The notes under the pieces: model-generated
What the model was told of the DNA's origin: nothing
What the model saw: the letters and a program-made list of their open reading frames with translations, nothing else
The model's database searches: none
From: Minisyncoccota bacterium
Lineage (GTDB): Bacteria; Patescibacteriota; Minisyncoccia; UBA6257; GWB1-50-10
Length of the DNA: 64,000 bases
Direction: 5' to 3'
Assembly (NCBI GenBank): GCA_041917695.1
Contig: JAYRXE010000037.1
Location: 370,582 to 434,581 of the forward strand
Translations under genes and position numbers: made by a program
In this document: in pieces, positions 4,370 through 56,670 of the stretch
How positions within the stretch are numbered: the first letter of the stretch is position 1
Layout: each line of letters starts with the position of its first letter

Positions 4370-4432
4370 GACAAAGTTGCAGATTAATTTTATTTTTACC
4401 CCAGCTATAAACTTTAAAAAACGAGGTGATAA

Positions 4433-5140: not shown

Positions 5141-5144
5141 ACTC

Positions 5145-7559: not shown

Positions 7560-7649
7560 AGTGGTTATGAGTATACCATGCGTTCTCATATATTTAGCCC
7601 TCCTCCAATGGGTTCGAAGTGGTGTAAAATGGTACCACCTGAAACCCGT

Positions 7650-9056
7650 ATGAAAGCCCTTTCCGGCCATAATTTCGCCATCGTGGACGTCGAAACGACG
7701 GGCACGAACGCCGTGTACAACCGCATTATTGAAATCGGTATTGTCCGCGTGGAAGACGGAAAAGTTACCAAAACTTTCAGCTCGCTCATAAATCCCGATA
7801 CCTACCTCTCCCCTTTCATCACGGGGATTACCGGAATCACGGACACGGACCTTTTTGACGCCCCGCGGTTTGAAGATATCGCTGAGGAAATCGAAGAACT
7901 CTTAGACGGCTGTATCCTTGTCGCGCATAATGCCGCGTTCGACTATGGTTTCGTGCGACGCGAGCTTGAGCGCGCTGAACGGAGCTTCACTGGGCGGCGG
8001 CTCTGCACCGTACGCCTCTCTCGCAAACTCTTTCCCGAGCATCGTTATCACAGCCTCGATCACCTCGTTGAGCGCTTCGGGTTTACCGTAGAGCGCCGAC
8101 ACCGCGCCCTGGATGACGCGATGCTGCTCGTCGAATTTTTCAAAAAATCCGAAAAGCTTCTCGGGTCCGCCCGCGTGAAAAAAGCAATTGCCAAAATGCT
8201 GAAGTTCCCTTCCCTTCCTTCCTATATTCCCGAATCGCAAGTCGCCGGGCTTCCGGCCGCTCCCGGCGTCTACATCTTCCGGGACGAGAACGGCACCCCT
8301 CTCTACGTCGGTAAAAGCGTGTCGGTGCGCGACCGCGTACTCGGCCATTTTTCCAACGCAGCGCGTTCAGGAAGAGAACGCCACATGCTTGAAGAGACGC
8401 GAGATGTCGAATGCGTCCGTACGACCGGCGAATTCAGCGCCTTGATGCTTGAATGCCGCATGATCCAAGAGCTTCAGCCCATCTATAACGTGATGGCGAA
8501 GCGGACGAAAAAACTCCTTATCGGGGAAATTGCTGAGGGCGCCGGCGGCTATCAGACGGTCGTACTCAAGAATTTCGAGCATATTTCGGATATTGATCCT
8601 GAAAAATTCATCGGTCTTTTCCGCTCACGCAAACAATTCGAGGAGCGAATGCGAGCGCTTGCGGATGACGCGCGTCTCTGCCCCAAACTCCTCGGCCTCG
8701 AAAAGACTGCCCGCGCCTGTTTTGCCCACCAGCTAAAAAAGTGCCCTGGAGCCTGCATTGGCAAGGAAAAGCCTGAGAAATACAATCGACGCTTCGCAAA
8801 GTCGTTTGATGAATTCATGGTGCGCCGCTGGCCATATCGGGGTCCTGTCCATCTTATTGAACAGACCGCGCATGGCAGCGGCTCCTACTTTGTCGTTGAT
8901 AACTGGGTGCTTTCCGAATACGGAACCTTCGAGGACGACGCGATGGATTCAACAGAAGTTTCCGAAAAAGCCTTCAACCTAGAAACCTACAAGCTCCTTG
9001 CCACCTGCCTTACGAACCCGAAGCGTTTTCACGTACGGATAGAGTTCAAACGCTAA
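7650..9056 (+). CDS. DnaQ-like 3'-5' exonuclease (DEDDh) fused to GIY-YIG nuclease domain
   Basis: FAIVDVETTGT (Exo I), LVAHNAAFDYGF (Exo II), HRALDDAM (Exo III). Then PGVYIFRDENGTPLYVGKS...RV..H is a GIY-YIG core. Start set at ATG 7650 (MKALSGHNF). Confidence 0.8.
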   Translation: MKALSGHNFAIVDVETTGTNAVYNRIIEIGIVRVEDGKVTKTFSSLINPDTYLSPFITGITGITDTDLFDAPRFEDIAEEIEELLDGCILVAHNAAFDYGFVRRELERAERSFTGRRLCTVRLSRKLFPEHRYHSLDHLVERFGFTVERRHRALDDAMLLVEFFKKSEKLLGSARVKKAIAKMLKFPSLPSYIPESQVAGLPAAPGVYIFRDENGTPLYVGKSVSVRDRVLGHFSNAARSGRERHMLEETRDVECVRTTGEFSALMLECRMIQELQPIYNVMAKRTKKLLIGEIAEGAGGYQTVVLKNFEHISDIDPEKFIGLFRSRKQFEERMRALADDARLCPKLLGLEKTARACFAHQLKKCPGACIGKEKPEKYNRRFAKSFDEFMVRRWPYRGPVHLIEQTAHGSGSYFVVDNWVLSEYGTFEDDAMDSTEVSEKAFNLETYKLLATCLTNPKRFHVRIEFKR

Positions 9057-9071
9057 ATTTATACAAAATAA

Positions 9072-9097
9072 AAAGCCGGTTTAAGCCGGCTTATTTA
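9072..9097. terminator. hairpin terminator (bidirectional)
   Basis: aagccgg-tttaag-ccggctt followed by tattt on + and preceded by an A-run, so it is usable on the minus strand too. Confidence 0.6.
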
Positions 9098-9413
9098 AAT
9101 AATTACAGGCAGTCTCTCATCTGATTTTCGCTCGTTGCGCAGTATCGGGCGTAGCTTCACCCTGGGGCGGCTCTTCAATCCCATCCGCAATACGGAAATC
9201 CACCTAGAAAGATTCCCTCCGGGATCGCATCATTGCCTCCTGCGAGCATGTCCGAGTTACCCCACATACCTTGATTAGGATGTGATAACCTTCGACCCAG
9301 GCGATAAATTCGAGTACGACTTATCTTTAACCTGTTAGCCTGTTAAATATAATTTGTTAAAGCCTATATTCGGAAATAAAGCCCCCGCGACTCTATTCCT
9401 ATCTAAGAAGCAT

Positions 9414-21695: not shown

Positions 21696-21846
21696 AATCT
21701 TACGTCGCTTCGCTCCCTGAAACCCAGCGGTTTCAGGGCATCCGCTACGGGAAAACTCCCGTTTCCCCGACCCCCTTCCCGTTCGAATCCCCTCTATTCC
21801 ACATCAAAGCAGAAACACCGGCATAAAGCTGGCGTTTCTGTTTTTG

Positions 21847-21917
21847 CTGGGGAGCAGGGATTCGAACCCCAATACTCGCCTCCAAAGGGCGATGTCCTAC
21901 CATTAGACGACTCCCCA
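21847..21917 (-). tRNA. tRNA-Gln (anticodon TTG)
   Basis: Reverse complement folds as a cloverleaf: acceptor TGGGGAG/CTCCCCA (7 bp), D-arm GTCT-AATGGTA-GGAC, anticodon arm TCGCC-CTTTGGA-GGCGA (U33, anticodon UUG), T-arm with TTCGAAT loop, discriminator G. CCA is not encoded. Confidence 0.7.
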
Positions 21918-22256: not shown

Positions 22257-23558
22257 TTAAAGCGCTGATTCAACAATACCCCTTTGGGATAAAATCCGCA
22301 AAAAGGCCTCTGCGTCTTCCCGCTCTATGGGAAATGCCTGTGCCATCGTATCGGTGCTGAATGTTTTCTCATCCATCATGTATTGCACCAGACGCATCGC
22401 ATCATTATTCAGAAGCGCGGATCCGCCAGAGACGAATACCACTCCCCCAAATTCTTCATCGCGCACGCGAACGCCGTTCGCAAGCTTGAATTCGCCAGGC
22501 GGCGTATCAGCATTTCTCGCTATCTTCTGCGGCAAGACGATGTCATAGGGACCACTCATGAAAGGGTCATTTCCATGGATATCTCCCAGATATTTCGCTT
22601 CCATTCTGCACCCGGCGCTGCACATCTCTATGTAATCACATGCATCGCAAGCGGGCGGAATATATACGCCCGCGCGCCAGTCTTCCATACTCTCCCATGC
22701 CTTTAAGAGACCATCCTGAAACACGTTGCCGTATACCATATCGGCGCGGGAACAGGGACGGACATCCCCATTAGAACCGATGGTGCAGCTCGTAACGCCG
22801 GCACCGCAGTTCCTGCGTGCAAAGACATGATACTTGCCCACATCGCCAATCAAGCAGAGCGGATAGCATTCCAACACATCAACGGCAATTCCCAATTCTT
22901 TCTGAATGTCCGTAAGCATCGCCATGCTTTTGCGCACCTCTTCTACGGTTAGAATCTCCTTATCAAAGTTGCGGCTATTCAGCGCCGGCGAAGCTTTCGT
23001 TGCGCAAAATCCATCAATGCCGTGCTTTACAAGCACTTCTGCCGTTTCCCTAAGATACGAGAAATTGCGCTTGCTGAGCACCATATTCGTACTCACCAAA
23101 AAACCAGCATGGACAGCAATGTCGATTCCTCTCATGGTACGCGCCCATGCGCCCTTTCGCCCCGCAATTTCATCATGCACCGCTTCGTTTCCGCATAAGA
23201 CAGAAACAAGCATTTTCCTCAATCCTGCATTCCATAAGGCCTGCGCGATCGGTTCGGTAAGGAGCGCCACATTCGAGTTGAGGCCTACTTCGATTCCCGC
23301 CTTATCCAATTCAGCGATGGCAGGAGGAAGCATAGACCAGTAAATAAGGGGTTCGCCGCCGGTAATGGTAACCGATGAAACCTGGAGCGAAATAAGATCG
23401 CGTACGATTTGCATCAGCTCGTCTTCCGTAAGGCGCGAGAGGACTTTCGGCCCGCTCTTTTCCCGCCAGTGGTTATAGCAATGGAAACAATCCATATTGC
23501 AGGCTTCGGTGATTTCCACCTGGACCGACAAGGGGCCCTTTAACTTCCGGTACTTCAT
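22257..23558 (-). CDS. radical SAM / SPASM-domain peptide-modifying enzyme
   Basis: EITEACNMDCFHCYN is the CxxxCxxC radical-SAM cluster motif. GGEPL SAM-binding segment. C-terminal CGAGVTSC...PACDACDYIEMCSAGC is the SPASM auxiliary-cluster pattern. Confidence 0.85.
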   Translation of the reverse strand: MKYRKLKGPLSVQVEITEACNMDCFHCYNHWREKSGPKVLSRLTEDELMQIVRDLISLQVSSVTITGGEPLIYWSMLPPAIAELDKAGIEVGLNSNVALLTEPIAQALWNAGLRKMLVSVLCGNEAVHDEIAGRKGAWARTMRGIDIAVHAGFLVSTNMVLSKRNFSYLRETAEVLVKHGIDGFCATKASPALNSRNFDKEILTVEEVRKSMAMLTDIQKELGIAVDVLECYPLCLIGDVGKYHVFARRNCGAGVTSCTIGSNGDVRPCSRADMVYGNVFQDGLLKAWESMEDWRAGVYIPPACDACDYIEMCSAGCRMEAKYLGDIHGNDPFMSGPYDIVLPQKIARNADTPPGEFKLANGVRVRDEEFGGVVFVSGGSALLNNDAMRLVQYMMDEKTFSTDTMAQAFPIEREDAEAFLRILSQRGIVESAL

Positions 23559-23673
23559 AAAAACCTCCGTATTAAATTAGTAGTTTACTGCCCATACCAT
23601 ACAAATATTTCAGAATCCCGTCAATCATCCCCTTCCCAAATAAAAATAGCAGATCCGTATCGGCATCTGCTAT

Positions 23674-26316
23674 TTATTGTTTTTCATATATCCCTTCGTT
23701 TATCCACCATTCATTTATGTCTTTGTACGCGATAAGCCGCGGATACTCCTCCACAAAATCGGGCGGCATTTTAAAACGCACCCGTTCCGTGAACTGCATC
23801 TCGTCCAGCCATTTGAGGGTCTTTTGCTTCGCAAATTTTCCCCCCGCATCTACGTCAAAGCCAATGCATACGTTTTCACGAACGCTCAATGCATGCTGGA
23901 GGGCAAGATAGTTAAACGTGCCTCCAAATGCTCCTGTGTCCGTGTGTTCAAGCTGAATCATCGTTAGGGCGTCTATAACCGCTTCCATAAGGTTAAAGTC
24001 CTTATAGCGAGGTCCTGTAGCCAATGCATCAGCATTCCACATGCCTTGCGGCACGCCGCTTAAGTGAACTAAGGTCTTGCGGTGCCGCATTTCCTTAGGA
24101 CAGTTTTTCCGCACATCACGCCCGTAAAAGCTCGTGATCCTTCCCCCGCTAAATCCGAGAGGGAAAACCAACTTGTTTCGCAAGACGAGATACGGCAAAC
24201 CATCTTTGGTAGCCACATCGCTCAAAGACTTCCCACGCCGTTTTAGAAGCGGGAAAAGCCCTTGGGTTTCACGCAAACTCCCATTGAAATTCACCAAACC
24301 GTAATGCACCAATTCATCGAACTCAAAAAGATCCAATAATGTTTCAATCGCATCATTGCTGCAGAATCCTGCTCCGTATGCGCGCGCCAGTTCTGGATCA
24401 AGCCGCCGTTCGTTTTCGAGATATTCCTTTCCCGGACTATCCTTGAAGAAAACTTGGAAGACTTGTTGCATCAGCGTCATCGCTTTCACATGAAAAGCCG
24501 GGATTTTTTCCAAGCTTTCAAGGGAATTGATGCGTTGCCTTCGCAAAACATCTATGCGCACCTCAGGGGGCATGGATTCATATGCAAAGGGCATCCACGT
24601 ATCGCACACATAGCACCGAGCATAGCCACGCCTCATGAAAAGCATCATGGAGGGGTTTTTATCCTCATGCCACGGCAGGACGCACTGGATGAAACCGCCG
24701 CGCTCCATACTGAAATGGCGTGTCCGTATATCCCCTTCTTCCAAGGCATGGAAGAACGCATCGAGATGGAAACGGTACGGCGAGTGCCGTCCGCTTGCCG
24801 TTTCGACCCGTACTTTCTCAACGATTTTTGCTTCATCAAGAAAGATCCGCTGGGACTTGATAACTTCCGCTATCTCATCATGCGGATGCAACGAGGTTGA
24901 TTGGACATCAATCAGCGTTTCATTAACACAGAGGGAACCATTCTGGCCGTTCTGCTTCCCATTTTTCCCATTCTTCCCTTTTTTGAGATGGATGAGTTCC
25001 TGGATGGCATTGCTGATGGCATTTCCCCGATCGCGAATCAAGGCTTTGGTCTGACTGTAGCCGTAGCGGCTTCCAATCGTCTCCATAAATACCTCGTGCT
25101 GTTCAGGGCCATCGACGTGAATGCGGTATTCAACCGGGGCAATACTGGGGAAAAAATACACCAGTTTCGCATCAGTGAATTTCACGTTTCCGTTCCAGAT
25201 GTCTTTCTGCTTATGCATGAGCGCATAATCCAGGTTTGCGAGAGCGATGTACTTCTTGAGCTGCACCTTATGCTCCGCAATAGGCTCTCCATTGATTTCA
25301 GTCGGCAGGATCACATGACGCGCATGCAAGCCATCACCCGTTGCAAATTTGAATTCATAGAATTCAACGTCAACGCGGGCTCCATGAAAAATCCTTTCCA
25401 GTTCGGAAAGAACCTGATTCAAGGAGTGAAACGTCATCTTTTGGAGGCTATTTACCTGGAGACGCTGTTTTTCCGTAGGAGTTTTACCCCCTATGGCAGT
25501 CACTAAAATCAAATCCATACGCCATCCTCCCAACCCATAGTGGTATGAAAGAATGGGTATCTCCCTCAGACCGCCATGGAGGCCGATCTTTTGGACGTAT
25601 GAAATGATCGTCGCAAGCGTCATCACCGTCAGGGTGAGATAGTACTGGAAATCAGAATGGTGTTGCTTCCGCTCCAGAAGGGCGCGGCCCGATTCGCCAA
25701 TAAGCGGCATGAGAAGCTTAAAGAGTGCACGGAATTTATTCCTATCCAGTTTCAGATAGTTTCTTTCCCAGTTCTTCCTTCCCAGCTGGCGAGCGAGAAA
25801 CTTCCATTTCTTTTTCACCTGTCGTGCAAAATCACGGGTAATACGGGGAATAGAGACAAAGCCTGATTCGAAAAGTGGCTGAGGAGCCGGAAATAGCGAT
25901 AGCTCCTCACACGTTTTTTGCTTATCTCCAACCTGACCGGTGAGTATCCTCTGGGCAGCAGCGTGTAAAAACACCCCGAACCCTCGAATATACTCCTCGT
26001 TATTCCCTGATTCTTCTTCAAACTGCCTGCGCAATGAAGCAAGTGAACGAGTATATCGGCCATCTTTCATATCAACCGACGTGATTCTTTGCTTTTCCGC
26101 GGGAGGGTGCGCTTTATGAATCTCATAGAGCTTCCCTACCGCTTCTTCGAGGCTTCGAGCAATCCGGCACTGGACCAAGATTCGCGCGAAACCCATCACA
26201 TCCGCTGGTGCGCGTTCGATCCATACCTTGAAGGCATGGTCGTCCTTATAGCGCTCAGTAAGCGCTAGAAGATCACCATAGGGAGTGAGCGTTGCATTGT
26301 TGAATAATGAGCTCAT
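23674..26316 (-). CDS. 880-aa fusion: unknown ~540-aa N-terminal region + DnaG-type primase core (CHC2 zinc finger + TOPRIM), no C-terminal helicase-binding domain
   Basis: CVLPWHEDKNPSMMLFMRRGYARCYVCDTW is a CHC2 primase zinc finger. LMEAVIDAL (TOPRIM Glu) and CIGFDVDAGGKFA (TOPRIM DxD) lie ~260 aa downstream, the same spacing as DnaG. Low-complexity linker KGKNGKNGKQNGQNG. The N-terminal 540 aa has no motif I can assign. Confidence 0.7.
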   Translation of the reverse strand: MSSLFNNATLTPYGDLLALTERYKDDHAFKVWIERAPADVMGFARILVQCRIARSLEEAVGKLYEIHKAHPPAEKQRITSVDMKDGRYTRSLASLRRQFEEESGNNEEYIRGFGVFLHAAAQRILTGQVGDKQKTCEELSLFPAPQPLFESGFVSIPRITRDFARQVKKKWKFLARQLGRKNWERNYLKLDRNKFRALFKLLMPLIGESGRALLERKQHHSDFQYYLTLTVMTLATIISYVQKIGLHGGLREIPILSYHYGLGGWRMDLILVTAIGGKTPTEKQRLQVNSLQKMTFHSLNQVLSELERIFHGARVDVEFYEFKFATGDGLHARHVILPTEINGEPIAEHKVQLKKYIALANLDYALMHKQKDIWNGNVKFTDAKLVYFFPSIAPVEYRIHVDGPEQHEVFMETIGSRYGYSQTKALIRDRGNAISNAIQELIHLKKGKNGKNGKQNGQNGSLCVNETLIDVQSTSLHPHDEIAEVIKSQRIFLDEAKIVEKVRVETASGRHSPYRFHLDAFFHALEEGDIRTRHFSMERGGFIQCVLPWHEDKNPSMMLFMRRGYARCYVCDTWMPFAYESMPPEVRIDVLRRQRINSLESLEKIPAFHVKAMTLMQQVFQVFFKDSPGKEYLENERRLDPELARAYGAGFCSNDAIETLLDLFEFDELVHYGLVNFNGSLRETQGLFPLLKRRGKSLSDVATKDGLPYLVLRNKLVFPLGFSGGRITSFYGRDVRKNCPKEMRHRKTLVHLSGVPQGMWNADALATGPRYKDFNLMEAVIDALTMIQLEHTDTGAFGGTFNYLALQHALSVRENVCIGFDVDAGGKFAKQKTLKWLDEMQFTERVRFKMPPDFVEEYPRLIAYKDINEWWINEGIYEKQ

Positions 26317-26487
26317 TCTTTTTCCTTTCAGATATATGGAATTTTTTGCTTGGGCACTATGCCCCAGCTGCTACAGATTTTTTATCACGTAGCTGGAGAG
26401 GGGTCAATTTGAAAAAATGCGTTTTTCGTGTCGTGAACTTGATATAATAAAAGGGAGGAAAGGTCGAAAAACTGACCGATTAAACAC

Positions 26488-26700
26488 ATGAAGCTCCACA
26501 CGATCGCCTTCGTTCTCCTTGTTATCGGAGGCTTGAACTGGCTTCTTCTTGCGCTTACGGGATGGGAGGTCGGGATGCTCTTTGGCGGCATGACTGCCAT
26601 GGTTTCCCGCATCATCTACATCCTTGTCGGCCTCTCTGCTATCTACGAGGTCGCGATGCACAAGAAGATCTGTCGCGAATGCGCGAAAAGCGCAATGTAA
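26488..26700 (+). CDS. DUF378 family small membrane protein
   Basis: VIGGLNWLLLALTGWEV...FGG... is a two-TM DUF378-like signature. A gggagg RBS region lies upstream. Confidence 0.65.
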   Translation: MKLHTIAFVLLVIGGLNWLLLALTGWEVGMLFGGMTAMVSRIIYILVGLSAIYEVAMHKKICRECAKSAM

Positions 26701-32897: not shown

Positions 32898-33788
32898 TTA
32901 CGTTCGGTTACGCTTTCTTTTTATAGTACCATACCGCACCGCGAAGAATGCGATGATCCCGACGAGCAGTATCCATATGTACGGTGACGCGATAAGGTCA
33001 TCAAAGGCGAGACGCGGGTTTGTTCCCTTTTCAGCCGGTATCACAACCTCCGCGACATTCCCTTCGGCATCGTACGCCTTCAAAACCACGTCCGACGAGC
33101 GCGATTGGTCGTATAAGAGATACGGGCTTTGCGCCTCCGCGCACGGGCGCTTGCCTTCGCACACCTCGAAACGGCTTACGCCTGAATTTTTATCCTGCGC
33201 AACCCAGAGAAGGGCGTACGCCCCTCCGTAGAGATCGCTTTCCCGCACTATCAAAGAGGTGCCTATTTCCGGCGCATCGCGATCCCGAAGAGCCGCCACA
33301 TTGCCTTCCGCGCGCGCATCGTTTTTCACCGCAACAGAAACCGGAGCAAGGTAAAGACCCGTCGGCGTGCCTTTCCCGTCATTTATAAACGCTGCTCCAT
33401 TCTGCAACGACAATTCCCCGGAGGATTCGACGCCCCCCCGCACTACCGTGGAGAAAAGCTTCCCTTCGCTTCCCCGGTATCCTCCCGGTATCACGCCCGA
33501 GAACGAAAGCGCGCCGTCCCGGACGCGCGGATTTTCAACCCACAACGAAACGATGGAATTCCCCGTCGAAATTTGTGAAAAGGAAAGCGATGACGCCGGA
33601 TACGCAAGCGCGCCCTCAAATGCATTTACCCGCTCTCCTTCCGTGTCCAAAAACCACGAAACCTCAATTGACCCGCCGGGCGGAACCTCGACTAGAGCCG
33701 GGACGGAGTACAATCGTGCGGCCTCTGCAGGCAAAGCAAAAAGAGCCGCCCCCGCCAATAAAACCGACATAGAGAATAGCTTGTTCAT
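32898..33788 (-). CDS. cell-surface protein with cohesin-like domain and C-terminal TM anchor (paralog of previous)
   Basis: Signal peptide, then LYSVPALVEVPPGGSIEVSWFLDT...SLQNGAAFINDGKGT (same module as in the neighbouring gene), and a C-terminal TM plus RKRNRT tail. Confidence 0.5.
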   Translation of the reverse strand: MNKLFSMSVLLAGAALFALPAEAARLYSVPALVEVPPGGSIEVSWFLDTEGERVNAFEGALAYPASSLSFSQISTGNSIVSLWVENPRVRDGALSFSGVIPGGYRGSEGKLFSTVVRGGVESSGELSLQNGAAFINDGKGTPTGLYLAPVSVAVKNDARAEGNVAALRDRDAPEIGTSLIVRESDLYGGAYALLWVAQDKNSGVSRFEVCEGKRPCAEAQSPYLLYDQSRSSDVVLKAYDAEGNVAEVVIPAEKGTNPRLAFDDLIASPYIWILLVGIIAFFAVRYGTIKRKRNRT

Positions 33789-33796
33789 TTTCTCCG

Positions 33797-35017
33797 TTAT
33801 CCGGACCAGTTGTACGCCATGATGCTGAAATCGACAAGCGTCACTTTTCCATCGCCGTTCAAATCAACTTTTGCCGGCGGAGCGGAACGCTTGTACCAGT
33901 ATGCCAAGACGGAAAAGTCGATGAGGTTCACCTTCCCATCCCCTGAAACGTCGGACTTCCCCGCCTTCGTGGTTTTTGCCGCCAAGACGGTCTTATCGCC
34001 GACCTTAAACGCGAGCGGGGCACTTTGTTGGCTCACTGCTCCGGAGAGCGCGGATTTTGACCGCGCCGTATGGTCGCCGTCCTCGAGGACGCCGGTATTG
34101 AACGCATACAAGTACACGCCGTCCTTGTCCGCCTTGGCCGTACCAAAATGCTCTTCATCGGAACTCACGGTAAGCGTAATTTGGCTTTCGGGGGCGCTTT
34201 GCCCGAAAAGGGTTATAGTCTCTCCGCGCTTTACCTCAACCTTGTCGGCGCCGATGGTCGGCGCGATAAAAATACCCGAAACTTGCGTCGCCGCCCCCGC
34301 CGTAATGCTGATGGGAAATGTTGATAAGGATGACCGGTATCCGTTCTTGTCTTCGCCGTACACGGAGAAAATATAATTCCCTCCGCTCAAGTTCGATATC
34401 GAAATACTGAACTGGCCGTCGGTTCCCACGCGCGACGAACCCGCCACCGATCCGTCCTTCAAAACGGTGACGTCGCTTCCGGGATACGCCCGCCCGATAA
34501 GGGTAACGCTCGTCGTGGGAGGCGGTACGCTGTTTCCCCCGCTTCCGCCACCTCCTCCTCCACCCCCGCCTCCTCCGCCTCCTCCGCTACCGCCTCCACC
34601 CGTGCTCCCCGCACTCGTCGTTGCGCTTGCCTCATCCGACGACGTGCTCGAACCCGCATCATTGAAAGCGCGCACGCGATAAAAATACGTGGTCGAAGGA
34701 AGGAGTCCTGTTCGGGTGTAGCTCGTGGCATTCGCGGGACGCGAGTCTATTTGCGTGAAAAATCCTCCGCTCCCCACTTTTTCTTCTACGTAAAAACCGT
34801 CTTCGTTGTTCGAATTGTCACTCCAACTCAAATTTATTTGTGACGCGGAAACCGACGTCGCGACAAGCGATGTCGGTTCAAGCGGAAGAACGACGATGCG
34901 AAGCGTGAGCTCGAAACCATCCGAAACCGTCTGGGCATGCGAAAAGAAAGGGAAAGCGAGTCCTATGCAAAACCCAAAAACAAGGAGTAGCGCGTTTTTT
35001 CTGTAAAACGGGCTCAC
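33797..35017 (-). CDS. surface protein: signal anchor, FN3 domain, poly-Gly tract, Ig-like repeats, two C-terminal dockerin repeats
   Basis: FN3: PTSLVATSVSASQINLSWS...YFYRVRAFNDAGSS. (G)n run of ~25 Gly. Dockerin repeats DVSGDGKVNLIDFSVLAYWY and DLNGDGKVTLVDFSIMAYNW. Start set at GTG 35017, just after the upstream gene's stop; the track ORF extends to 35122. Confidence 0.65.
   Translation of the reverse strand: MSPFYRKNALLLVFGFCIGLAFPFFSHAQTVSDGFELTLRIVVLPLEPTSLVATSVSASQINLSWSDNSNNEDGFYVEEKVGSGGFFTQIDSRPANATSYTRTGLLPSTTYFYRVRAFNDAGSSTSSDEASATTSAGSTGGGGSGGGGGGGGGGGGGGSGGNSVPPPTTSVTLIGRAYPGSDVTVLKDGSVAGSSRVGTDGQFSISISNLSGGNYIFSVYGEDKNGYRSSLSTFPISITAGAATQVSGIFIAPTIGADKVEVKRGETITLFGQSAPESQITLTVSSDEEHFGTAKADKDGVYLYAFNTGVLEDGDHTARSKSALSGAVSQQSAPLAFKVGDKTVLAAKTTKAGKSDVSGDGKVNLIDFSVLAYWYKRSAPPAKVDLNGDGKVTLVDFSIMAYNWSG
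34540..34610. repeat. CCN/GGN simple-sequence tract encoding poly-Gly
   Basis: cctcctcctccacccccgcctcctccgcctcctccgctaccgcctccacc on + strand. Confidence 0.8.
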
Positions 35018-35022
35018 GAATC

Positions 35023-35922
35023 CTATTTCTTCACCCGAACGATCCTGAATTTCTTTTTGAGATTTCCCAAGCCGAACCAAACAAGCAGTCCGAACGCCAC
35101 GACGGCAAGCGCTTCCTGCCATGGAAAGGCGAAGAAGGTTATTGTCTTCGTAACCGCTCCGCCGGGCATGGAGGACGTGAGGGTTGCCGTGAGAGGACCA
35201 AAGGCATAACGGCCCGCCACCTGCGCCTCAAAGGTACGCGTGTGGCCGGGAAAAACGATACGCGGCTCTATTGCAACCGATTTTTCGGGATAAAAAGGGC
35301 CTTTAATCGAGATGGAGCTCTCGGGATTGAAATGCGTATTACCCGTGTTTTCAAGTTTTGCCGTAAAAGAAAAGGGTCCGTGCGAAACATACGACGCGGG
35401 GCCAGTGAAAGAATCTATTTTACCGGTCTTTACGGTCGCGCCCGGAACTTCGATGAGCATCACCGTACCGACGCGCCCCGAAATGCCCACTCCCCCGTTC
35501 GGACCTGAAATACCGCGGAAAAGTATGGAACCGTAATGGCCTCCCGGCTCTGCATTTGCGGGAACATTAACCGTAAACGGAATTTGGCGGCGTTCCTGGG
35601 GTCCGAGCGTGAATTCTGTGCGGTCGATGGAAACCCACGAGGAAATGCCGTGCGGTATTTCCATGTCGATAAGATCTATCGAGCCTTCGTCGCCGCCGGC
35701 GATATTCTCGACCTCTGGATGCACGCCGATTGAGAAATCATTCGGATTGATGACGGTAATGGTGTCGGCATACGATTCGCCCTGAGCCACCGTCACATTG
35801 AACTTCACCGGATACAGCGAGATGCCCACCTGGGCGTTGCCAACCCCGGGGAATAAAAGGCACCCACCAAGAAAGAGGGCGCCAAATGATAAAACTGAGA
35901 AAATTCCAACGTGTGATTTCAT
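35023..35922 (-). CDS. secreted beta-rich protein with C-terminal TM anchor, hypothetical
   Basis: Start moved to ATG 35922 (MKSHVGIFSVLSFGALFLGG signal). C-terminal TM ALAVVAFGLLVWFGL plus KKKFRIVRVKK. Confidence 0.5.
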   Translation of the reverse strand: MKSHVGIFSVLSFGALFLGGCLLFPGVGNAQVGISLYPVKFNVTVAQGESYADTITVINPNDFSIGVHPEVENIAGGDEGSIDLIDMEIPHGISSWVSIDRTEFTLGPQERRQIPFTVNVPANAEPGGHYGSILFRGISGPNGGVGISGRVGTVMLIEVPGATVKTGKIDSFTGPASYVSHGPFSFTAKLENTGNTHFNPESSISIKGPFYPEKSVAIEPRIVFPGHTRTFEAQVAGRYAFGPLTATLTSSMPGGAVTKTITFFAFPWQEALAVVAFGLLVWFGLGNLKKKFRIVRVKK

Positions 35923-36005
35923 GTTCCTTAGTAAGAAGGATGATACCCGAATCTCTGCAGTCCGTCGAATCAAAACAACCGCTTTCGCGGCTGTTTTTTT
36001 AGCGA

Positions 36006-36677
36006 TTACGGATTGGTGATAGCGGTCACCGTGATGGTTCCGGTGTAGTTCGTGGCCTGCTGGGTGGCCGGCGCATCGGCACGGACCTTCATGACGACCG
36101 TCTGCGCGGAACCGGAATATGTGCTCGTTGTTGCAACATTCTGGGACGTCGATGTCGGAAATCCTGCGTACTGCGCCCCTGCGGCGCCGTCGGTATCGTT
36201 CGGGCCCCACCACGTCGTGCTATAAAGGCCGGCACCGGTTCCCGTCTGCATGACGCGGAAATGGAGGTTTGAACCGATGAGGTTTGTGGTCGTCGCATTG
36301 CCGTTACCCGTCGCGTTCCACGCGGTGTAATCGGGGAAGGTGATGGTGCCGGACGCAATCGTCGAGGTGACGCTCACGCGGCTGATACGGAGATTCCAAC
36401 CCGTCGCCGAGTTCGTCGAAACCGTCGCGGAAGACGTTGCGGAGACCGCAGAGCCCGGAGTAAGCGACCCGAGGGCGATGGTCGTCGTTGAGAGGCTCAG
36501 GGTAATCGTTTGGTTTACCGTGACGCTAATCGTCTGGTTCGTAGACGTCGAAACCTGCGCCAAGGCGTTCGGCATGAAAATCGAGGCGGGGAGCGAAAAA
36601 GCCCCCATCAAAAGCCCCGCGATGCCGACCACGACCACCGAAAATGCAAACCCTTCCAAAGAGATAAAATCTTTCAT
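36006..36677 (-). CDS. secreted Thr/Ser-rich beta protein, hypothetical (paralog pair A)
   Basis: Signal peptide. Shares ITFPDYTAWN, RADAPATQQATNY and C-terminal TAITNP with the next gene. Confidence 0.5.
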   Translation of the reverse strand: MKDFISLEGFAFSVVVVGIAGLLMGAFSLPASIFMPNALAQVSTSTNQTISVTVNQTITLSLSTTTIALGSLTPGSAVSATSSATVSTNSATGWNLRISRVSVTSTIASGTITFPDYTAWNATGNGNATTTNLIGSNLHFRVMQTGTGAGLYSTTWWGPNDTDGAAGAQYAGFPTSTSQNVATTSTYSGSAQTVVMKVRADAPATQQATNYTGTITVTAITNP

Positions 36678-36731
36678 GGGCTTATTATAACACTTTCACG
36701 TAACGACATGCCTTCTTCCCTTGTGGATAAT

Positions 36732-38075
36732 TTAGGGGTTCGTTATCGCCGTAAACGTGACAGTTCCTGCATAATTCGTCGCTTGCTGGGTCGCCGGCGC
36801 ATCGGCGCGGTATTGCACGGTCGTGACGGTCGTTCCCGAGTTCGATGACGTGGCATTTGCGATGGTTTGCGAGCTCGTCGGCATCCCTGCAAAGATAGCC
36901 GTGCCGTTCGTATCATTCGTCCCCCACCAAATACCGCAATAGCTCGAGTCCGTCCCGGTTTGCCGTACCCTGAAGGAAAAAACCGCTCCCGGGGCCGTTG
37001 AGCCGTTTCCTTGGCCCGCCGTGCATCCGGAGCCCGGATTCCACGCCGTGTAGTCGGGGAACGTAATCGTGGAACTCGCGAGAGTCGAGGTGACGCTCGT
37101 CCGGTTGATCTTCAAACTATAGCCGTTCGTCCCGCCGCTTATCGTGACAGACGCCGTTGTCGTCGCCGTTACCGCTGTGCCCGGCGTAAACGAACCGAGC
37201 GCGACGGTTGAACTTGAAAGCGTGAGGGTAATGGTCGGCGAACCTGCGCCCGAGGAAAGCGTCACCTGCGGATATTGCGAATAAGTGAAATTCGCCGCTG
37301 AGCCTGCATTCGTTACGCGGAAGCAATACGTTGCGGACGAGGTCGCCTGCGCGTTTGCTTGCACCGCATATTCAAGCTCAAGGAATGAATCGCTGGGGAG
37401 CGAAACCGCCGCCGCTTGGCTTCCCGCATCCTTCACGCCGCCGTTTGCCGCGAGAAACGCGTAATTCGAATCCGTCACGCCGCCCGAGCCTACGGAAATA
37501 TTCGTCGTGTTCGCGCCGTCGGTGAGGTTTGCCGTGTTCACCATGCTCCAGTCGGCATTCGTACCGACATCCACCCAGTTTGAGACGGCACTGCAGGTCG
37601 TCACCAGAAATCCGTACTCAAGCCGGAACTGCTGGGTTGAATATCCTTTTATCGTCCCTCCTTCGTTCGAAATCCCGACACGAATGCGTGTCGTGGTTGC
37701 TTTAGCAAAATTCGTGAGCGCCGCGTTCTCAACTCCGCCCGTCGCTGAGGTTGCCGCCGACTCCGAACCGTTGTCGTTCCTGAAATGAAAGCCAGTCTGC
37801 GTATAGTCGGGCTTTACCGGCTGAAAGAGCGCGCGGAGGAAACCAGCGACCGCGCGAAATGTCGTCGATGTTGAAAGTCCCGGAGCGTCAGAAAAACCAT
37901 TCTGCAGTATCCGGAAGGTTGTCGAACTTGAAAAACCCGCGGTCGAACCTATTTCCTGCCGGACAAAAAAATTCGTCGAGGACGCATCAAGCGCGAACGC
38001 GGTGCGGATGCCGAAGAGAAGCGCGGCGCAGAAAAAAAATACTGCACCGAGACGCGCCGAAGTGCGTTTTTTCAT
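36732..38075 (-). CDS. secreted Thr/Ser-rich beta protein, hypothetical (paralog pair B)
   Basis: Signal peptide. Same conserved blocks as 36006-36677 (ITFPDYTAWN ... YRADAPATQQATNYAGTVTFTAITNP). Confidence 0.5.
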   Translation of the reverse strand: MKKRTSARLGAVFFFCAALLFGIRTAFALDASSTNFFVRQEIGSTAGFSSSTTFRILQNGFSDAPGLSTSTTFRAVAGFLRALFQPVKPDYTQTGFHFRNDNGSESAATSATGGVENAALTNFAKATTTRIRVGISNEGGTIKGYSTQQFRLEYGFLVTTCSAVSNWVDVGTNADWSMVNTANLTDGANTTNISVGSGGVTDSNYAFLAANGGVKDAGSQAAAVSLPSDSFLELEYAVQANAQATSSATYCFRVTNAGSAANFTYSQYPQVTLSSGAGSPTITLTLSSSTVALGSFTPGTAVTATTTASVTISGGTNGYSLKINRTSVTSTLASSTITFPDYTAWNPGSGCTAGQGNGSTAPGAVFSFRVRQTGTDSSYCGIWWGTNDTNGTAIFAGMPTSSQTIANATSSNSGTTVTTVQYRADAPATQQATNYAGTVTFTAITNP

Positions 38076-38081
38076 GGAAGT

Positions 38082-38519
38082 CTAGCGGAGATACGAAACG
38101 ATCGGATCATCCGCGTCGAGGAATTTCCAATAGAGCACCATCGAGCGGTTGATGAAAAGAAACGACGTGCGCTTCACCGGCACGAGTTGCGTGGCGCTTT
38201 GGCCGCTCGCAGTACCGGAGAGCGAAAATTCCATCGACGAAGACTGCGTTTCGGATGAAGAAGGCGTGAATTTTTCAAGCACGTACACGTCGCTCAAGCC
38301 CACGACGTCGTCACCCATCCCGCTCAGATGCCCAAAAAGGATTTCGCCGTTCGCAAGCTGTACCGAGGCCCACTCCTTGGGAAGCGGGCTGTGCATGCGC
38401 ACGTAGAGGACGGTACGTTCCGCACCGAGCCAAACGGCGCCGGCAACGATAAGAAACAAGAGGACGAGCACCCACGGGCTTCGCGCCTTTCTTTTTATGC
38501 GGATAATATCTATCGCCAT
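38082..38519 (-). CDS. membrane-anchored hypothetical protein
   Basis: N-terminal TM WVLVLLFLIVAGAVWL; no family. Confidence 0.4.
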   Translation of the reverse strand: MAIDIIRIKRKARSPWVLVLLFLIVAGAVWLGAERTVLYVRMHSPLPKEWASVQLANGEILFGHLSGMGDDVVGLSDVYVLEKFTPSSSETQSSSMEFSLSGTASGQSATQLVPVKRTSFLFINRSMVLYWKFLDADDPIVSYLR

Positions 38520-38525
38520 AGTTGC

Positions 38526-38996
38526 TTATCTTGGATTATACCACGTCCCCTCTTCGCCCTGGTCGGCAAAAAAGTAGTAATATTCCCCGTCGCCGAAATT
38601 CTTGAGTGATTCAGCCGAAAATCCATACTGGAACGCCTTCCCCGATTCGCACGGAAGCGCGCGGTTCACGACGGCACGCGATACATCCTCGCGGTAGTCG
38701 ACCGACGCGGGATATACGAGGAGCGTCGCATAGGTCGCATGGCATCCGTCTTCAAGCACGACGCCTGTTGCCCCGCTTATCTTCCCGTCCGCGTACGCGA
38801 TGCGGCGATAGGTATCGGGAGAAGGCATGTTTCGCAAGACCGGATCGAGTATCGTGCGGGAAGATACAACCTTTTTTACCTCCGCGGTCTCTTCGGATTT
38901 TTTTTCTTTTCCGAAAAAAAACAAATAGCCCCCGGCGAGGATGAGGACGACGCCTAATGCGATGACGCGATAGAGCCGTTTCGAATCCCCTACCAT
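38526..38996 (-). CDS. membrane-anchored hypothetical protein
   Basis: Start moved to ATG 38996 (MVGDSKRLYRVIALGVVLILAGGYLFFF). The upstream part of the track ORF is GC-skewed Arg/His-rich and overlaps the next gene. Confidence 0.4.
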   Translation of the reverse strand: MVGDSKRLYRVIALGVVLILAGGYLFFFGKEKKSEETAEVKKVVSSRTILDPVLRNMPSPDTYRRIAYADGKISGATGVVLEDGCHATYATLLVYPASVDYREDVSRAVVNRALPCESGKAFQYGFSAESLKNFGDGEYYYFFADQGEEGTWYNPR

Positions 38997-39502
38997 TTGC
39001 GCACGACAAGCTCCACCATGATGTCCGAAATGACGTTCCAATAATGCTGCTGGGCAAACTGCCGGGCTTCCTCGGATTTCTTGTCCCACGGCGGATTGAA
39101 GAACACCACCATCTGCGAAACGTCGAAATGCGATTTGATAGGATAATGGTCGAGCTTGTTCGCCGCGCGCCAATCTTTGTTGAAATAGAGCCACGTGGCC
39201 TCCGAGAGCGTCCGCGTGTGCGTGGGATCCTGCCATGCGCGGATGGAGGTGTAATACGGCCCGATGATGGTTACTTTCGCCCCGTCGGCGCAAATGCGCC
39301 AGATTTCGTCCATGAACTTCATGAGGTCATGCGTGTGCTCGGCATAGTGGCTTACGTGGGCTTCTTCCACGGAATTATCTTCAAACGGCGCCCAGGGAAA
39401 TTGTTCCAGGTCCCACACGTAATCGACGCCGGGTCCCGGTGCGATGTCGACTCCCTTGAATCCGGCGCGTTTGTTCTGTCCGCAGGCGATATCGAGCTTC
39501 AT
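38990..39502 (-). CDS. class I SAM-dependent methyltransferase
   Basis: MKLDIACGQNKRAGFKGVDI (motif I LDxxCG) ... ADGAKVTIIGP (motif III-like). Confidence 0.65.
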   Translation of the reverse strand: MKLDIACGQNKRAGFKGVDIAPGPGVDYVWDLEQFPWAPFEDNSVEEAHVSHYAEHTHDLMKFMDEIWRICADGAKVTIIGPYYTSIRAWQDPTHTRTLSEATWLYFNKDWRAANKLDHYPIKSHFDVSQMVVFFNPPWDKKSEEARQFAQQHYWNVISDIMVELVVRKW

Positions 39503-39515
39503 GACGTTAAATAGG

Positions 39516-40505
39516 TTAGTTGTTGATCACGTAATCGTACGCGGCTTTGGAAATTTCCGCCATGAAAGACGCAGCGCGCTTCTCATCTCCGCCGTTCGAA
39601 CCCACGCAGAGAATATAATGCCGGTTCGAAGCATATACGATACCGCAATCGGAGAACGTCTCATCGTTTGCCGCAATACCTATCTTATGTGCGACGGAGA
39701 CCCGCTCCGGGACTCCTGCAACGATCTTGTCATTGAAGCTACTACTCGCCAAATACCCGAGTATCTGTTCGGAATGCTCAGGGGAAACATATGTCGCATT
39801 GTAGAGGGCGAGAAACATGTTCGAGAGCGTCTTTAAATTGATCTTCACGTAAGTGGGCGCGGTATTCTCACCAAACCCTGGCACACCCTCCCCATAGGCC
39901 CACCCAAATTGCGCATATACATCCGCTAACGGGTCGGCGATGCCCGTGTTCATCAAAATGTTCTGCACGGCAATTGCGGCGGTATTATCCGATTGCTCCA
40001 ACATAATCCGTACCAATTCCTCAAGGCTGAAATCGTGGTCAGCTCCATTTTTATATAAATCACCGAAATCCTTATTCAAATCAAGTTCGCTAAGAGTGTA
40101 TCGATCGTTTAAGTGTAACTTTCCCTCCTCAACAGCCTTCATCGCCGACATCGCGAGCGGCACCTTCACGGTGCTTGCCGCAGTGAACTCTTCCCGTTCA
40201 TTCAGGCCCGTCCACGCACCGTTATTGAGATAGAGGAAATAAACATAGGTCTTTTGGGGATACCTCGCCTGTATCTCGGCAAGCGCCTTCCTTAGCGGTC
40301 CGAAATTAATGATGAAATGCTTGTTAAGATTCGACATGACGGTCGGATTGACGAACGCAAGATCTCCGCGCGCATTTTCACGCTCCAAAACATCTTTTGC
40401 CGAATCAGGGCTGTCCTTTTTTCCTGAAAAAGTTTTTCCCAAAACAAAGCTCGCCGTAGCAACGGCTAAAATTATCGGAACCGCGATGAAAATTTTTTTT
40501 ACCAT
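39516..40505 (-). CDS. class A beta-lactamase-like serine hydrolase (secreted)
   Basis: Signal anchor; ASTVK (SxxK), SDN, KIG (KTG-like) in the canonical order and spacing. Confidence 0.7.
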   Translation of the reverse strand: MVKKIFIAVPIILAVATASFVLGKTFSGKKDSPDSAKDVLERENARGDLAFVNPTVMSNLNKHFIINFGPLRKALAEIQARYPQKTYVYFLYLNNGAWTGLNEREEFTAASTVKVPLAMSAMKAVEEGKLHLNDRYTLSELDLNKDFGDLYKNGADHDFSLEELVRIMLEQSDNTAAIAVQNILMNTGIADPLADVYAQFGWAYGEGVPGFGENTAPTYVKINLKTLSNMFLALYNATYVSPEHSEQILGYLASSSFNDKIVAGVPERVSVAHKIGIAANDETFSDCGIVYASNRHYILCVGSNGGDEKRAASFMAEISKAAYDYVINN

Positions 40506-41218
40506 ACGATATCCATTTGCGCGTCGTAATGCCCCACTCTGACACGCGTATCACACGCCACCTTATACCCTAGTTTCCGTATCTTTTCGAAGAAATACAG
40601 GTCTTGCGTATATGCCTTGATGCCCCGTTCGTGGTCCCATTCATTAAACGTCTTAAACCAGGGTTTTTCAATCCGCGTGTCCCTAAAAAGCTCCATTTTG
40701 AAAAGCGTGAAGCCCATCCCAAGCCCATTGCACTCTTGAATTTCCTCCTGCGGCACTTGCGGACGGAAGTTCATCTCACTATCTTTCGGATCGCCATATA
40801 TCATCGGCTGGCCGCCCTCTCCCTTCGTCCAATAGAGACCACCAACGGCGGCGTAGTCGTCGATGTGTTCGTATAATTTGATAAGCCCGTCGGGCGGAGG
40901 GATATTATCCTCTTCCAAGGTAAGCACGTATTTCCATTTGGAAAGCTCGGGGTTTCCCAAAATAGTTTCGATGGTTGAGCTATAGGCCTCCCCAACCTCC
41001 ATGCCGATTGCAAATATCCTCGTGAATTTCTGGTTCATGGGCGCGATCATACCCATCCACGCTTGGGTGACTTTCGCAGGAATCATTCCGCGCGTGGGAA
41101 CGATGCAGACGGTCGAGAGGTCGCGATACCCCTTCCCTTTTTCCAATCGCTCAATGCTCTCCGAAAAATTAGCATTATGAGTCCCTTGGTAGTTTTGGAT
41201 GACGATTTGAGGCTTCAT
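40499..41218 (-). CDS. putative glycosyltransferase-like protein
   Basis: CIVPTRG ... LEEDNIPPPD ... QDLYFFEKIRKLGYKV is loosely GT-A-like. Tentative. Confidence 0.35.
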   Translation of the reverse strand: MKPQIVIQNYQGTHNANFSESIERLEKGKGYRDLSTVCIVPTRGMIPAKVTQAWMGMIAPMNQKFTRIFAIGMEVGEAYSSTIETILGNPELSKWKYVLTLEEDNIPPPDGLIKLYEHIDDYAAVGGLYWTKGEGGQPMIYGDPKDSEMNFRPQVPQEEIQECNGLGMGFTLFKMELFRDTRIEKPWFKTFNEWDHERGIKAYTQDLYFFEKIRKLGYKVACDTRVRVGHYDAQMDIVW

Positions 41219-41233
41219 ATGATATTCATTACT

Positions 41234-42841: not shown

Positions 42842-42844
42842 GGA

Positions 42845-43480
42845 TTATTTTTTCAATAAAAGGCCCCGCGCCGTGCGGTGGGTTTCTTGATATGCATTCG
42901 AAAACTCTACCGCAAGCTCGCGTTCCGCGGGAACACGGGACGCGTGAAAATGCGCATTATGATGGAGCGCGAACTCCAAAGGCGCCGTCACTTTCATGAA
43001 ATAGGCATCCACTTCCTTGCCGTCCTTGCGCGCCACGGACCACTGCCACCCGAAATCAAGCAAATGGTCGCCAAACGGCAAAGGCTGGGAAACAGCCGTA
43101 TACTGCTCGCCTATCGGTATGATGTCCTGGGTCTGATAGAAGACTTCGAAATTAAAACCGTAGCCTTGGAATTTCGTACGGCGGTTTTCCGTGAGCCGCG
43201 TGAGAATCCGCGCCGCTTCGGCTGGGAGCGGCGAAGAAGCGGGTTCGCGCGCTTCAAGGTCTTCGAAGCGGATGCGATGTTCCTCGCACGCGATTTGAAG
43301 CCCCAGAGCGGGAAGATCGATGACCTTCATGCGAAGCATCGGATCGTCGGCAAGCTGCATCCCCCGCCCCCGATCGCCCTTGAAAAGCTCAACCAACTCG
43401 CTTGGCTCGGGCACTAACGACACGCCCCGTTCAAAAACGAATATCATGTTTGCCTTGTGGAGCGATTCGGAGCGTATCAT
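42845..43480 (-). CDS. hypothetical protein
   Basis: Soluble, no family recognised. Confidence 0.4.
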   Translation of the reverse strand: MIRSESLHKANMIFVFERGVSLVPEPSELVELFKGDRGRGMQLADDPMLRMKVIDLPALGLQIACEEHRIRFEDLEAREPASSPLPAEAARILTRLTENRRTKFQGYGFNFEVFYQTQDIIPIGEQYTAVSQPLPFGDHLLDFGWQWSVARKDGKEVDAYFMKVTAPLEFALHHNAHFHASRVPAERELAVEFSNAYQETHRTARGLLLKK

Positions 43481-43486
43481 GTTTTT

Positions 43487-56220: not shown

Positions 56221-56352
56221 ATGAATCCGATTATATGCCCTTTTAACGCTCTCCGAAAGGGGCCCGTGACTCCGTATTTGATTGGCCTTTTGGAGCGCTT
56301 CGTGCTATAACATCAGCAGTTTTTTTAATATTTTAAACTCAAAAGGAACGCG

Positions 56353-56670
56353 ATGGAAATATTCATGCTGCTTCAGGAACTTGCACGAAAGCTCGAGGAA
56401 GAACTGTTGAACCCCAGGTTCAAAAGCGCCTCAAGCCACAGTTTTCAAAACCCGCATTTGCGGATCAAAGTGACACCAACCAAAAAGAACGGCCTCGCCG
56501 CCGGGCTGGGAAACCCCATCATACAAATCAAGGAAATCGGCGAGAAGCGCTATTGCCTGGAAGCGCGGCATCTCAGGGATTATAAAAACTTCCTTCCCGA
56601 TATCAAGAAACTTACCGATGAATGGTGCAAAGAAAAACAATTCATCTTTGATTTCAGGTATATTTCCTGA
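56353..56670 (+). CDS. hypothetical protein
   Basis: No family recognised. Bidirectional hairpin terminator at 56690-56720 (aaaccccgc-gtat-gcggggttt). Confidence 0.4.
   Translation: MEIFMLLQELARKLEEELLNPRFKSASSHSFQNPHLRIKVTPTKKNGLAAGLGNPIIQIKEIGEKRYCLEARHLRDYKNFLPDIKKLTDEWCKEKQFIFDFRYIS

Follow-up and report, generated by a model that had tools for sequence, protein, structure and literature searches.

A single gene in a candidate phyla radiation (CPR) genome appears to join a DNA nuclease to a DnaG-type primase. It lies at positions 23674..26316, on the minus strand, of a 64,000-nucleotide stretch of Minisyncoccota bacterium DNA (assembly GCA_041917695.1, contig JAYRXE010000037.1; hereafter the window), and its product, the 880-residue protein P0001, comprises a predicted PD-(D/E)xK nuclease module of the RecB/Dna2/Cas4 kind at its N-terminus and a divergent DnaG-type primase core at its C-terminus. 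Both domains are of known kinds; their fusion is an enzyme architecture that we could not find described. The literature yielded no account of a nuclease fused N-terminal to a helicase-independent DnaG-type primase, and the PADLOC and PHROG collections returned only generic primase matches. We favor, at about an even chance, the reading that P0001 is a bifunctional, chromosomally resident accessory nuclease-primase of CPR/Patescibacteria that would couple end processing to repriming, and is not an orthologue of the canonical replicative DnaG. Pointing to such an accessory nuclease-primase are the architecture, the invariant catalytic residues in both halves, the existence of the nuclease module as an independent protein in other CPR genomes, the lack of a helicase-binding domain, and the rarity of the family.

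An earlier note on this DNA had described the protein as an orphan, whose N-terminal module of 540 residues matched no recognizable family and carried no clear PD-(D/E)xK motif. Little of that description survives. An exhaustive profile search places P0001 in a family of 158 cluster representatives; the module is really some 445 residues long, and is followed by a 15-residue linker and by an 80-residue conserved segment ahead of the zinc finger; and no residues of the family are better conserved than the supposedly missing motifs. What stands is that no curated family covers the module. Pfam had no match on N-terminal fragments and none over the module in 54 members, NCBIfam none over the module in 32 members, and PDB profile searches of the module revealed no relationship, the matches to Jingmen tick virus and ARHGEF7 entries being due to chance. 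Likewise, a profile alignment of the module with the E. coli RecB nuclease domain (hhalign) reached a probability of only 0.2, and a Foldseek comparison with the PDB was not significant. Sequence models are thus blank over the module, and it is the predicted fold, taken together with the motifs, that identifies a nuclease.

Read along the chain, the conserved positions spell out, in order, the motifs by which RecB-family nucleases are known: GxxxH, D, (D/E)xK, and QxxxY. Motif I, G114-V-F-L-H118 (25963..25977, on the minus strand like every element of the protein given below), retains G114 and H118 in 100% of the 98 full-length members, to which the conservation figures here refer, and is invariant also in 32 stand-alone or N-terminal module sequences. 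Further along, within 25249..25563, come E252 (97%), motif II with D268 (100%) in the string RMDLILV, motif III with E321-F-K323 and the following G327-D328 (100% for K323, G327, and D328), and motif IV, Q352-LKK-Y356 (96% for Q352, 100% for Y356). Position 321 is Asp in 77% of members, and Glu in P0001 and most of the others by motif census. Together with D82, R266, H349, and Y387, these residues make up the top-conserved positions of the N-terminal half.

The AlphaFold2 model of residues 1-460, computed from a 124-sequence alignment, attained a predicted local distance difference test score (pLDDT) of 89.6 and a predicted template modeling score of 0.88, and displays a restriction-endonuclease-like alpha-beta core fold. 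In this model, D268 sits on the strand 266-275, the ExK motif on the strand 315-324, and the QxxxY motif on the helix 347-367. The nuclease domain proper (residues 105-445; 24982..26004) extends from motif I to a long C-terminal helix at 415-445 and carries helical insertions. It is preceded by a subdomain of six helices (residues 1-104; 26005..26316), which the model places at 12-99, and which bears the near-invariant D82 (94%). The nearest structural neighbors are Dna2 (value 10.0), AdnA and AdnB (9.9 and 9.4), the Cas4-family protein ACE1 (8.7), MGME1 (8.2), RecE (7.8), the Cas4 protein SSO0001 (7.6), AddA (7.1), Exo5 (7.0), RecB (6.5), and lambda exonuclease (5.9). Foldseek searches against viral models gave weak matches, all of them to PD-(D/E)xK, RecB, or Cas4 exonucleases, and a PHROG family of the Cas4 type touches the QxxxY helix. 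The assignment of the module as a RecB/Dna2/Cas4-like PD-(D/E)xK nuclease outside the curated families, which draws on predicted fold and motif pattern, is one that we consider solid, and the domain is putatively metal-dependent. It differs from its RecB-family comparators (Dna2, AdnA/AdnB, AddA, RecB, MGME1, Exo5, RecE, and Cas4) in several respects. There is no detectable sequence-profile similarity; a helical insertion of about 40 residues separates the D and (D/E)xK strands, and another of about 130 residues follows motif I; and the fusion partner is a primase rather than a helicase. The module also has no conserved cysteines, no alignment column exceeding 15% Cys, and so, unlike Cas4, AddB, and Dna2, it should hold no four-cysteine Fe-S cluster.

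The nuclease module gives way to a low-complexity linker rich in Lys, Gly, Asn, and Gln, KGKNGKNGKQNGQNG (residues 446-460; 24937..24981), where the pLDDT falls below 50 at 455-460 and about where stand-alone modules end. Next comes a family-specific segment (residues 461-540; 24697..24936) marked by L468, R490, D494, E500, H517, and G540/G541, which is conserved along with the zinc finger. Nothing in E. coli DnaG corresponds to it, as the alignment of the family hidden Markov model (HMM) to that protein begins at family position 535. The sole model to cover this segment, a full-length AlphaFold prediction from a two-sequence alignment, was of low confidence (pLDDT 33.6) and was not used.

For the remaining ~340 residues the earlier note proved a better guide: it had seen there a DnaG-type primase core without the DnaB-interaction domain, and the strings it quoted occur as given, with CVLPWHEDKNPSMMLFMRRGYARCYVCDTW at residues 545-574, LMEAVIDAL at 776-784, and CIGFDVDAGG at 817-826. 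The family HMM aligns to residues 34-324 of E. coli DnaG with 82.5 bits, and pairs the CHC2 finger, the FPx..GR element, E265 with E778, and D309xD311 with D821xD823. The zinc finger (residues 541-580; 24577..24696) offers the ligands C545, H550, C568, and C571, opposite the E. coli CCPFH...CFGCG, with the three cysteines conserved in 100% and the histidine in 89% of members; Pfam Zn_ribbon_DnaG matches 43 of 54 members, and in P0001 lies at 545-572 below threshold. The RNA-polymerase N-subdomain follows (residues 581-770; 24007..24576), with its FPL...Y731-G-R733 and H745-R-K747 elements, of which Y731, G732, R733, H745, and K747 recur in 92-97% of members; its E. coli DnaG equivalent in the HMM alignment is the stretch 169-324, with FPI..GR among the paired residues. 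Here, too, curated models see little: DNAG_N at 629-740 scores 18.1 bits against a threshold of 26 and reaches E<=0.01 in only 4 of 54 members, 3e-8 being the best value, and the NCBIfam model for dnaG, TIGR01391, matches 610-846 with 39.6 bits, short of its equivalog cut-off of 283.6. The TOPRIM fold (residues 771-880, the protein end; 23677..24006) is the better recognized part, Toprim_2 matching at 776-849 above cut-off (E 9e-6), and holds E778 (97%), D821xD823 (83% and 94%), and D866-I-N868 (97% and 89%). The matches of P0001 in the PDB are weak and exclusively to DnaG catalytic cores, and those of the primase half among PHROGs are to DNA primases. By sequence, then, the C-terminal ~340 residues are a divergent DnaG-type primase core with intact catalytic residues. 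The chain terminates with the TOPRIM fold, and neither of the Pfam domains DnaB_bind and DnaG_DnaB_bind, both of which were detected in the E. coli DnaG control, was found in P0001; with no such domain, the primase must act without docking on the replicative helicase. The two halves of the fusion evolve at an equal pace.

This arrangement bears on the least probable of the alternatives, that the zinc-finger/TOPRIM half is a second nuclease or DNA-binding module of the OLD-family or RecR type and the protein a dual nuclease; although TOPRIM folds also serve as nucleases and the DNAG_N and Zn_ribbon_DnaG matches fall below their curated thresholds, the whole DnaG-specific series of CHC2 finger, FPL...YGR subdomain, and TOPRIM fold is conserved, and the matches are to DnaG cores and DNA primases, so that this reading is very improbable.

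The size of the family became apparent only by exhaustive search. Word-indexed searches returned P0001 itself and one 44%-identical relative, P0002, and, with a 32-sequence profile of the N-terminal module, three proteins only; searches of this kind are uninformative for the family. A HMMER search of 1.84 billion cluster representatives (50% identity), with a profile from two N-terminal regions, found the 158 at E<=1e-3, including 128 at E<=1e-10. About 100 are 820-983 residues long, the size of the fused architecture, whereas about 28, of 430-524 residues, start with Met and end just past the module and represent a stand-alone nuclease form. Genomes were scanned with a hand-made degenerate DNA pattern for the octapeptide DWKFA[VI]GD, which occurs in 38 of 157 sequences and so covers 24% of the family. 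In GTDB, with one genome per species, the pattern matched 31 times, and hmmsearch confirmed 17 of these loci, representing 16 genes, as members. They fall in 16 genomes (JACOZZ01, JAGVPS01, CAYOEB01, CAYJWW01, CAYUDJ01, JBPOIF01, JBEKVQ01, VMER01, CAYSWC01, JBBEDS01, DATBWL01, CAZCTJ01, JBAZXM01, MFVF01, CAYHJY01, and DASZSN01). All 17 lie in metagenome-assembled genomes (MAGs) of Patescibacteria/CPR, labeled Saccharibacteria, Paceibacterota, Nomurabacteria, Yanofskybacteria, Minisyncoccia, and Parcubacteria. An apparent pair of copies in one Yanofskybacteria MAG (JACOZZ010000002.1 and JACOZZ010000022.1) was discounted, since an assembly break divides a single gene between the two contig ends, which overlap at the motif and hold its N-terminal and its C-terminal portion. 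The same pattern added 21 members from JGI metagenomes; on four of the metagenome contigs (L050, L070, L086, and L092) the family gene is read as two adjacent ORFs, probably through frameshift sequencing errors. The family is real, rare, and, as far as sampled, restricted to the CPR. In one Paceibacterota MAG (L023), a 257-residue protein (4371-5141, plus strand) is encoded convergently with a stand-alone module gene, 8 bp apart. By eye it seems Cas4/RecB-like (GTLLHD, LDLK, YGIQTSAY, and C-terminal cysteines), which would make two distinct PD-(D/E)xK nucleases adjoin there.

The history of the gene can be followed in the relatives of the window genome. L001, the contig that encodes P0002, shares its gene order with the window from 62.4 to 45.0 kb, and its family gene stands between a gene for a ~105-residue protein and pspC. 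The same pspC slot is occupied by the genes for P0009 and for the far more distant P0010 (31% identity), so that three related genomes share the site. In the window, the corresponding interval (56221..56352), between pspC (55738-56220, minus strand) and the gene for a 105-residue protein (56353-56670, plus strand), is, by tblastx synteny, gene tables, and sequence, the empty ancestral site; no remnant of the family gene is found at 56221-56352, and the window 105-residue protein counts as an orthologue by position (30% identity, E 6e-5). The gene tree of P0001, P0002, P0009, and P0010 agrees with that of the flanking genes. The congruent trees, the shared slot, and the empty site in the window together show that the gene has been inherited vertically within the clade and was relocated by ~30 kb in the window lineage. 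All the while, the family gene has been the fastest-evolving of its neighborhood. Between window and L001 its product is 44% identical, against 72% for TrpRS and 64% for PspC; between window and L045, which carries the P0010 gene, the figures are 31%, 65%, and 40%; and between L001 and L044, the contig of P0009, they are 73%, 96%, and 93%. Elsewhere, the closest pairs (47-49% identity) come from MAGs labeled as different CPR phyla and have no common flanks, which suggests occasional transfer, though MAG labels may be imprecise.

How might such an enzyme work? As the nearest structural neighbors of the module (Dna2, AdnAB, MGME1, RecE, Exo5, and Cas4) act on DNA ends or single strands, the nuclease half would, by analogy, engage DNA ends or single-stranded DNA and trim or resect a strand. 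On the single strand thus exposed, the tethered primase would then synthesize an RNA primer, from which a polymerase could fill in or restart synthesis. Repair, replication restart, or the handling of incoming single-stranded DNA would each be a suitable setting. A more specific version, which we advance as a tentative possibility, is that of a "resect-and-prime" enzyme, peculiar to the CPR and independent of a helicase, which would act at breaks, at stalled forks, or on imported DNA and provide a one-protein route of repair or replication restart, or from single-stranded DNA to duplex. To our knowledge, no bacterial equivalent has been described.

The alternative that fares best, although we consider it improbable, is a single-gene anti-phage or anti-plasmid defense, in which invading DNA, single-stranded or under replication, would be sensed or acted upon by the DnaG-like part, with the PD-(D/E)xK domain as the effector. 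Its rapid evolution relative to TrpRS and PspC, its patchy and rare distribution in the CPR, and the close pairs across differently labeled lineages without common flanks would all suit such a role. In addition, DnaG-type primase domains are known from the DRT, UG6, UG24, and UG29 defense systems (PMC9226505), and UG29, UG6, UG24, and the PADLOC RTasDnaG-like class resemble P0001 in that an accessory protein carries a DnaG-type zinc-finger/TOPRIM module with no replicative role. However, the PADLOC match of P0001 to RTasDnaG-like (38 bits, 2e-10) is weak, covers the primase core only, and reflects generic DnaG similarity. No reverse transcriptase was found in P0001 itself, among the annotated neighbors, or among the top recurrent Pfam families, and neither a C-N hydrolase, a phosphohydrolase, any other adjoining defense gene, nor a defense-island context accompanies the gene. 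Instead, the neighbors across the 26 loci compared are housekeeping genes, such as those for FtsZ, FtsH, TsaD, L27, GyrA, NusA, and BipA, along with ComEC, and no neighbor family recurs, whether by Pfam or by all-against-all BLAST. The gene has moreover held its syntenic position where TrpRS is 65-74% identical, which is unusual for defense genes, and the window genome retained it through relocation.

These same features, namely vertical inheritance, conserved synteny within one clade, and retention after relocation, could instead mark P0001 as the sole, lineage-specific replicative primase, its N-terminal module standing in for the missing helicase-binding domain. All primase catalytic residues are conserved, as this would demand, and no second DnaG-like ORF was found either in the window, 64 kb of a contig of at least 680 kb, or in related loci totaling 402 kb. 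The rarity of the family, with 158 clusters and 16 CPR genomes in a motif scan covering 24% of it, makes a sole replicative primase distinctly unlikely nonetheless.

Slightly more doubtful still is a stranded replication module of a mobile element, that is, the initiator nuclease and primase of a plasmid or integrative element surviving as relic or cargo. Three observations point that way. First, 88 of 98 members show D-x-N after TOPRIM strand 4, most of them with an aromatic middle residue, whereas the E. coli DnaG sequence there is EDPD; the pattern recalls the "DaN-" motif that Iyer et al. (2017; PMC5512222) describe as typical of Toprim primases from mobile elements. Second, the G+C content of the gene departs from that of its flanks, in both directions across hosts. 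Third, a tRNA-Gln gene and a segment of low G+C are only 1.7 kb away from the copy in the window. The resemblance to "DaN-" is a hint, not proof, as to ancestry; the acidic fourth position of that motif is present in only 27 of 98 members, and positional equivalence was judged by eye. That Toprim_2 is the best TOPRIM match was dropped as a sign of a mobile-element primase, E. coli DnaG matching it best as well. No integrase, relaxase, Rep, type IV secretion or other transfer gene, or phage gene occurs among the annotated neighbors in the loci examined, and around the gene in the window and L001 there are neither terminal or direct repeats nor target duplications beyond short chance repeats. 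Two IMG/VR contigs matched the octapeptide pattern, neither of them a family member, and a tblastn search of the primase half against 72,556 plasmids and 50,697 phages produced matches of 22-24% identity only. Both catalytic centers are strongly conserved, and the gene is thus not decaying. The mobile-element or defense framing offered by the earlier note accordingly finds no support in context: the neighbors in the 26 loci are housekeeping genes, the gene has no flanking repeats, the motif scan placed no member on a viral contig, and three related genomes keep the gene at one site.

The bifunctional accessory nuclease-primase that we prefer can be set against several known systems. DnaG-type primases are otherwise met as replisome components on DnaB, in helicase fusions of phages and plasmids, and as modules of a few defense systems. 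With DnaG itself (E. coli; TIGR01391) P0001 shares the order of CHC2 finger, RNA-polymerase N-subdomain, and TOPRIM fold, with the zinc ligands, FPx..GR, the Glu, and DxD all in register. It departs from DnaG in its low identity (~20-25%), in D-x-N where E. coli has D-P-D, in the extra 80-residue segment before the finger and the 445-residue nuclease module, in the lack of DnaB-binding domains, and in being rare and patchy where DnaG is universal. It also stands outside the rpsU-dnaG-rpoD operon, neither rpsU nor rpoD being nearby, as had been said of it at the outset. LigD, of bacterial non-homologous end joining, similarly unites an end-trimming nuclease and a primase-type polymerase in one polypeptide. 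The analogy is functional only: its archaeo-eukaryotic primase-polymerase, phosphoesterase nuclease, and ligase are none of them homologous to domains of P0001, for which neither a ligase domain nor a Ku partner turned up. The phage and plasmid primase fusions, namely the T7 gp4 primase-helicase, P4 alpha, the N15/PY54 primase-SF2 helicase, RP4 TraC1, and R64 Sog, likewise carry a DnaG-type primase without a DnaB-binding domain as one module of a multidomain protein, and have a seemingly similar D-x-N TOPRIM motif (PMC5512222; PMC4889955). The partners in these are helicases, or polyvalent-protein modules on mobile elements; in P0001, by contrast, the partner is an N-terminal nuclease, the gene is chromosomal among housekeeping neighbors, and the similarity is marginal.

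The gene appears to be a transcription unit of its own. The identical protein is recorded in NCBI and Logan assemblies, and the frame, already proposed by the earlier note, is real and runs uninterrupted from ATG to TAA on the minus strand; the plus strand of 23674-26316 is riddled with stops. Antisense ORFs of 148-201 residues do lie within the gene (24454-25506, plus strand) but are artefacts, and their equivalents in relatives group in all-against-all BLAST merely by shadowing the conserved sense frame. A terminator-like hairpin (AGCAGAU...AUCUGCU) with a U-run begins inside the stop codon (23637..23675, minus strand). It folds with -16.3 kcal/mol (z -4.1), a value equaled by none of 200 shuffles, and an analogous hairpin attends the P0002 gene; the consensus terminator scan did not pick it up, probably owing to its internal bulge and long apical region. 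With this hairpin and U-run placed at the stop codon, the gene is probably transcribed alone, apart from the radical-SAM/SPASM gene that follows after 115 bp. On the other side, an intergenic region of 171 bp (26317..26487), in which a promoter scan found no consensus promoter, is the presumed promoter region common to the P0001 gene and the divergent DUF378 gene (26488-26700, plus strand).

The immediate neighbors in the window are ordinary chromosomal genes, among them those for the radical-SAM/SPASM protein, tRNA-Gln, DUF378, and an alanine racemase. The first of these encodes a 433-residue protein (22257-23558, minus strand) directly downstream, with a promoter-like site at 23624-23596. 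It does adjoin the nuclease-primase gene, as the earlier mention of a RiPP-like (ribosomally synthesized and post-translationally modified peptide-like) neighbor implied, but the adjacency is kept in no relative; a functional link between the two was rejected, given the terminator in between and the absence of such a neighbor beside every relative. The PADLOC matches of the same protein to pVip (viperin), down to 8e-17, probably reflect no more than the likeness of radical-SAM proteins in general, as SPASM domains are foreign to viperins. Beyond the tRNA-Gln gene (21846-21917, minus strand), which it adjoins, the segment 12000-22000 has a G+C content of 0.41-0.47, against ~0.55 elsewhere. Its genes, which include an APH-type kinase, a GNAT protein, a rhamnosyltransferase-like protein, an isochorismatase, a lycopene-cyclase-domain protein, and an MFS protein, have third-position G+C of 0.40-0.48 against ~0.70 in core genes, and the segment looks like an acquired island. 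A ~12-kb block at 32900-44900 encodes large secreted or surface proteins with Big_13, Big_6, fn3, dockerin, and WxL-interacting domains, several without a Pfam match; it lies between the genes for Nramp and a 582-residue Big_13 protein, and is absent from L001, where those two genes adjoin. The window further encodes a 492-residue protein (7578-9056, plus strand) with a DnaQ/RNase_T-type 3'-5' exonuclease and a GIY-YIG nuclease domain, and a short UvrC of 403 residues (48763-49974).

Two observations concern the loci of relatives. In L045, the P0010 orthologue is followed 1.8 kb downstream by an Avd-like gene (23S_rRNA_IVP/bAvd; 8978-9340), of which L046 and L047 have equivalents, and a diversity-generating retroelement may be close by. 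The gene for BipA/TypA, in the window at 60634-62607, is found ~4-6 kb from the family gene in L001, L004, L040, and L045, L040 carrying the stand-alone nuclease form; this proximity possibly goes back to a gene order that Parcubacteria-type genomes once had in common.

CPR/Patescibacteria have minimal genomes, and their pathways of DNA repair, replication restart, and DNA uptake are poorly understood. As the nuclease module is invisible to both Pfam and NCBIfam, a model built for it could annotate ~160 clusters now listed as "hypothetical protein". A resect-and-prime enzyme, if such it is, would be a functional analogue of Dna2 together with PrimPol, or of the nuclease and primase domains of LigD, and the two activities, if coupled, would give cells a hitherto undescribed means of dealing with DNA ends or single strands.

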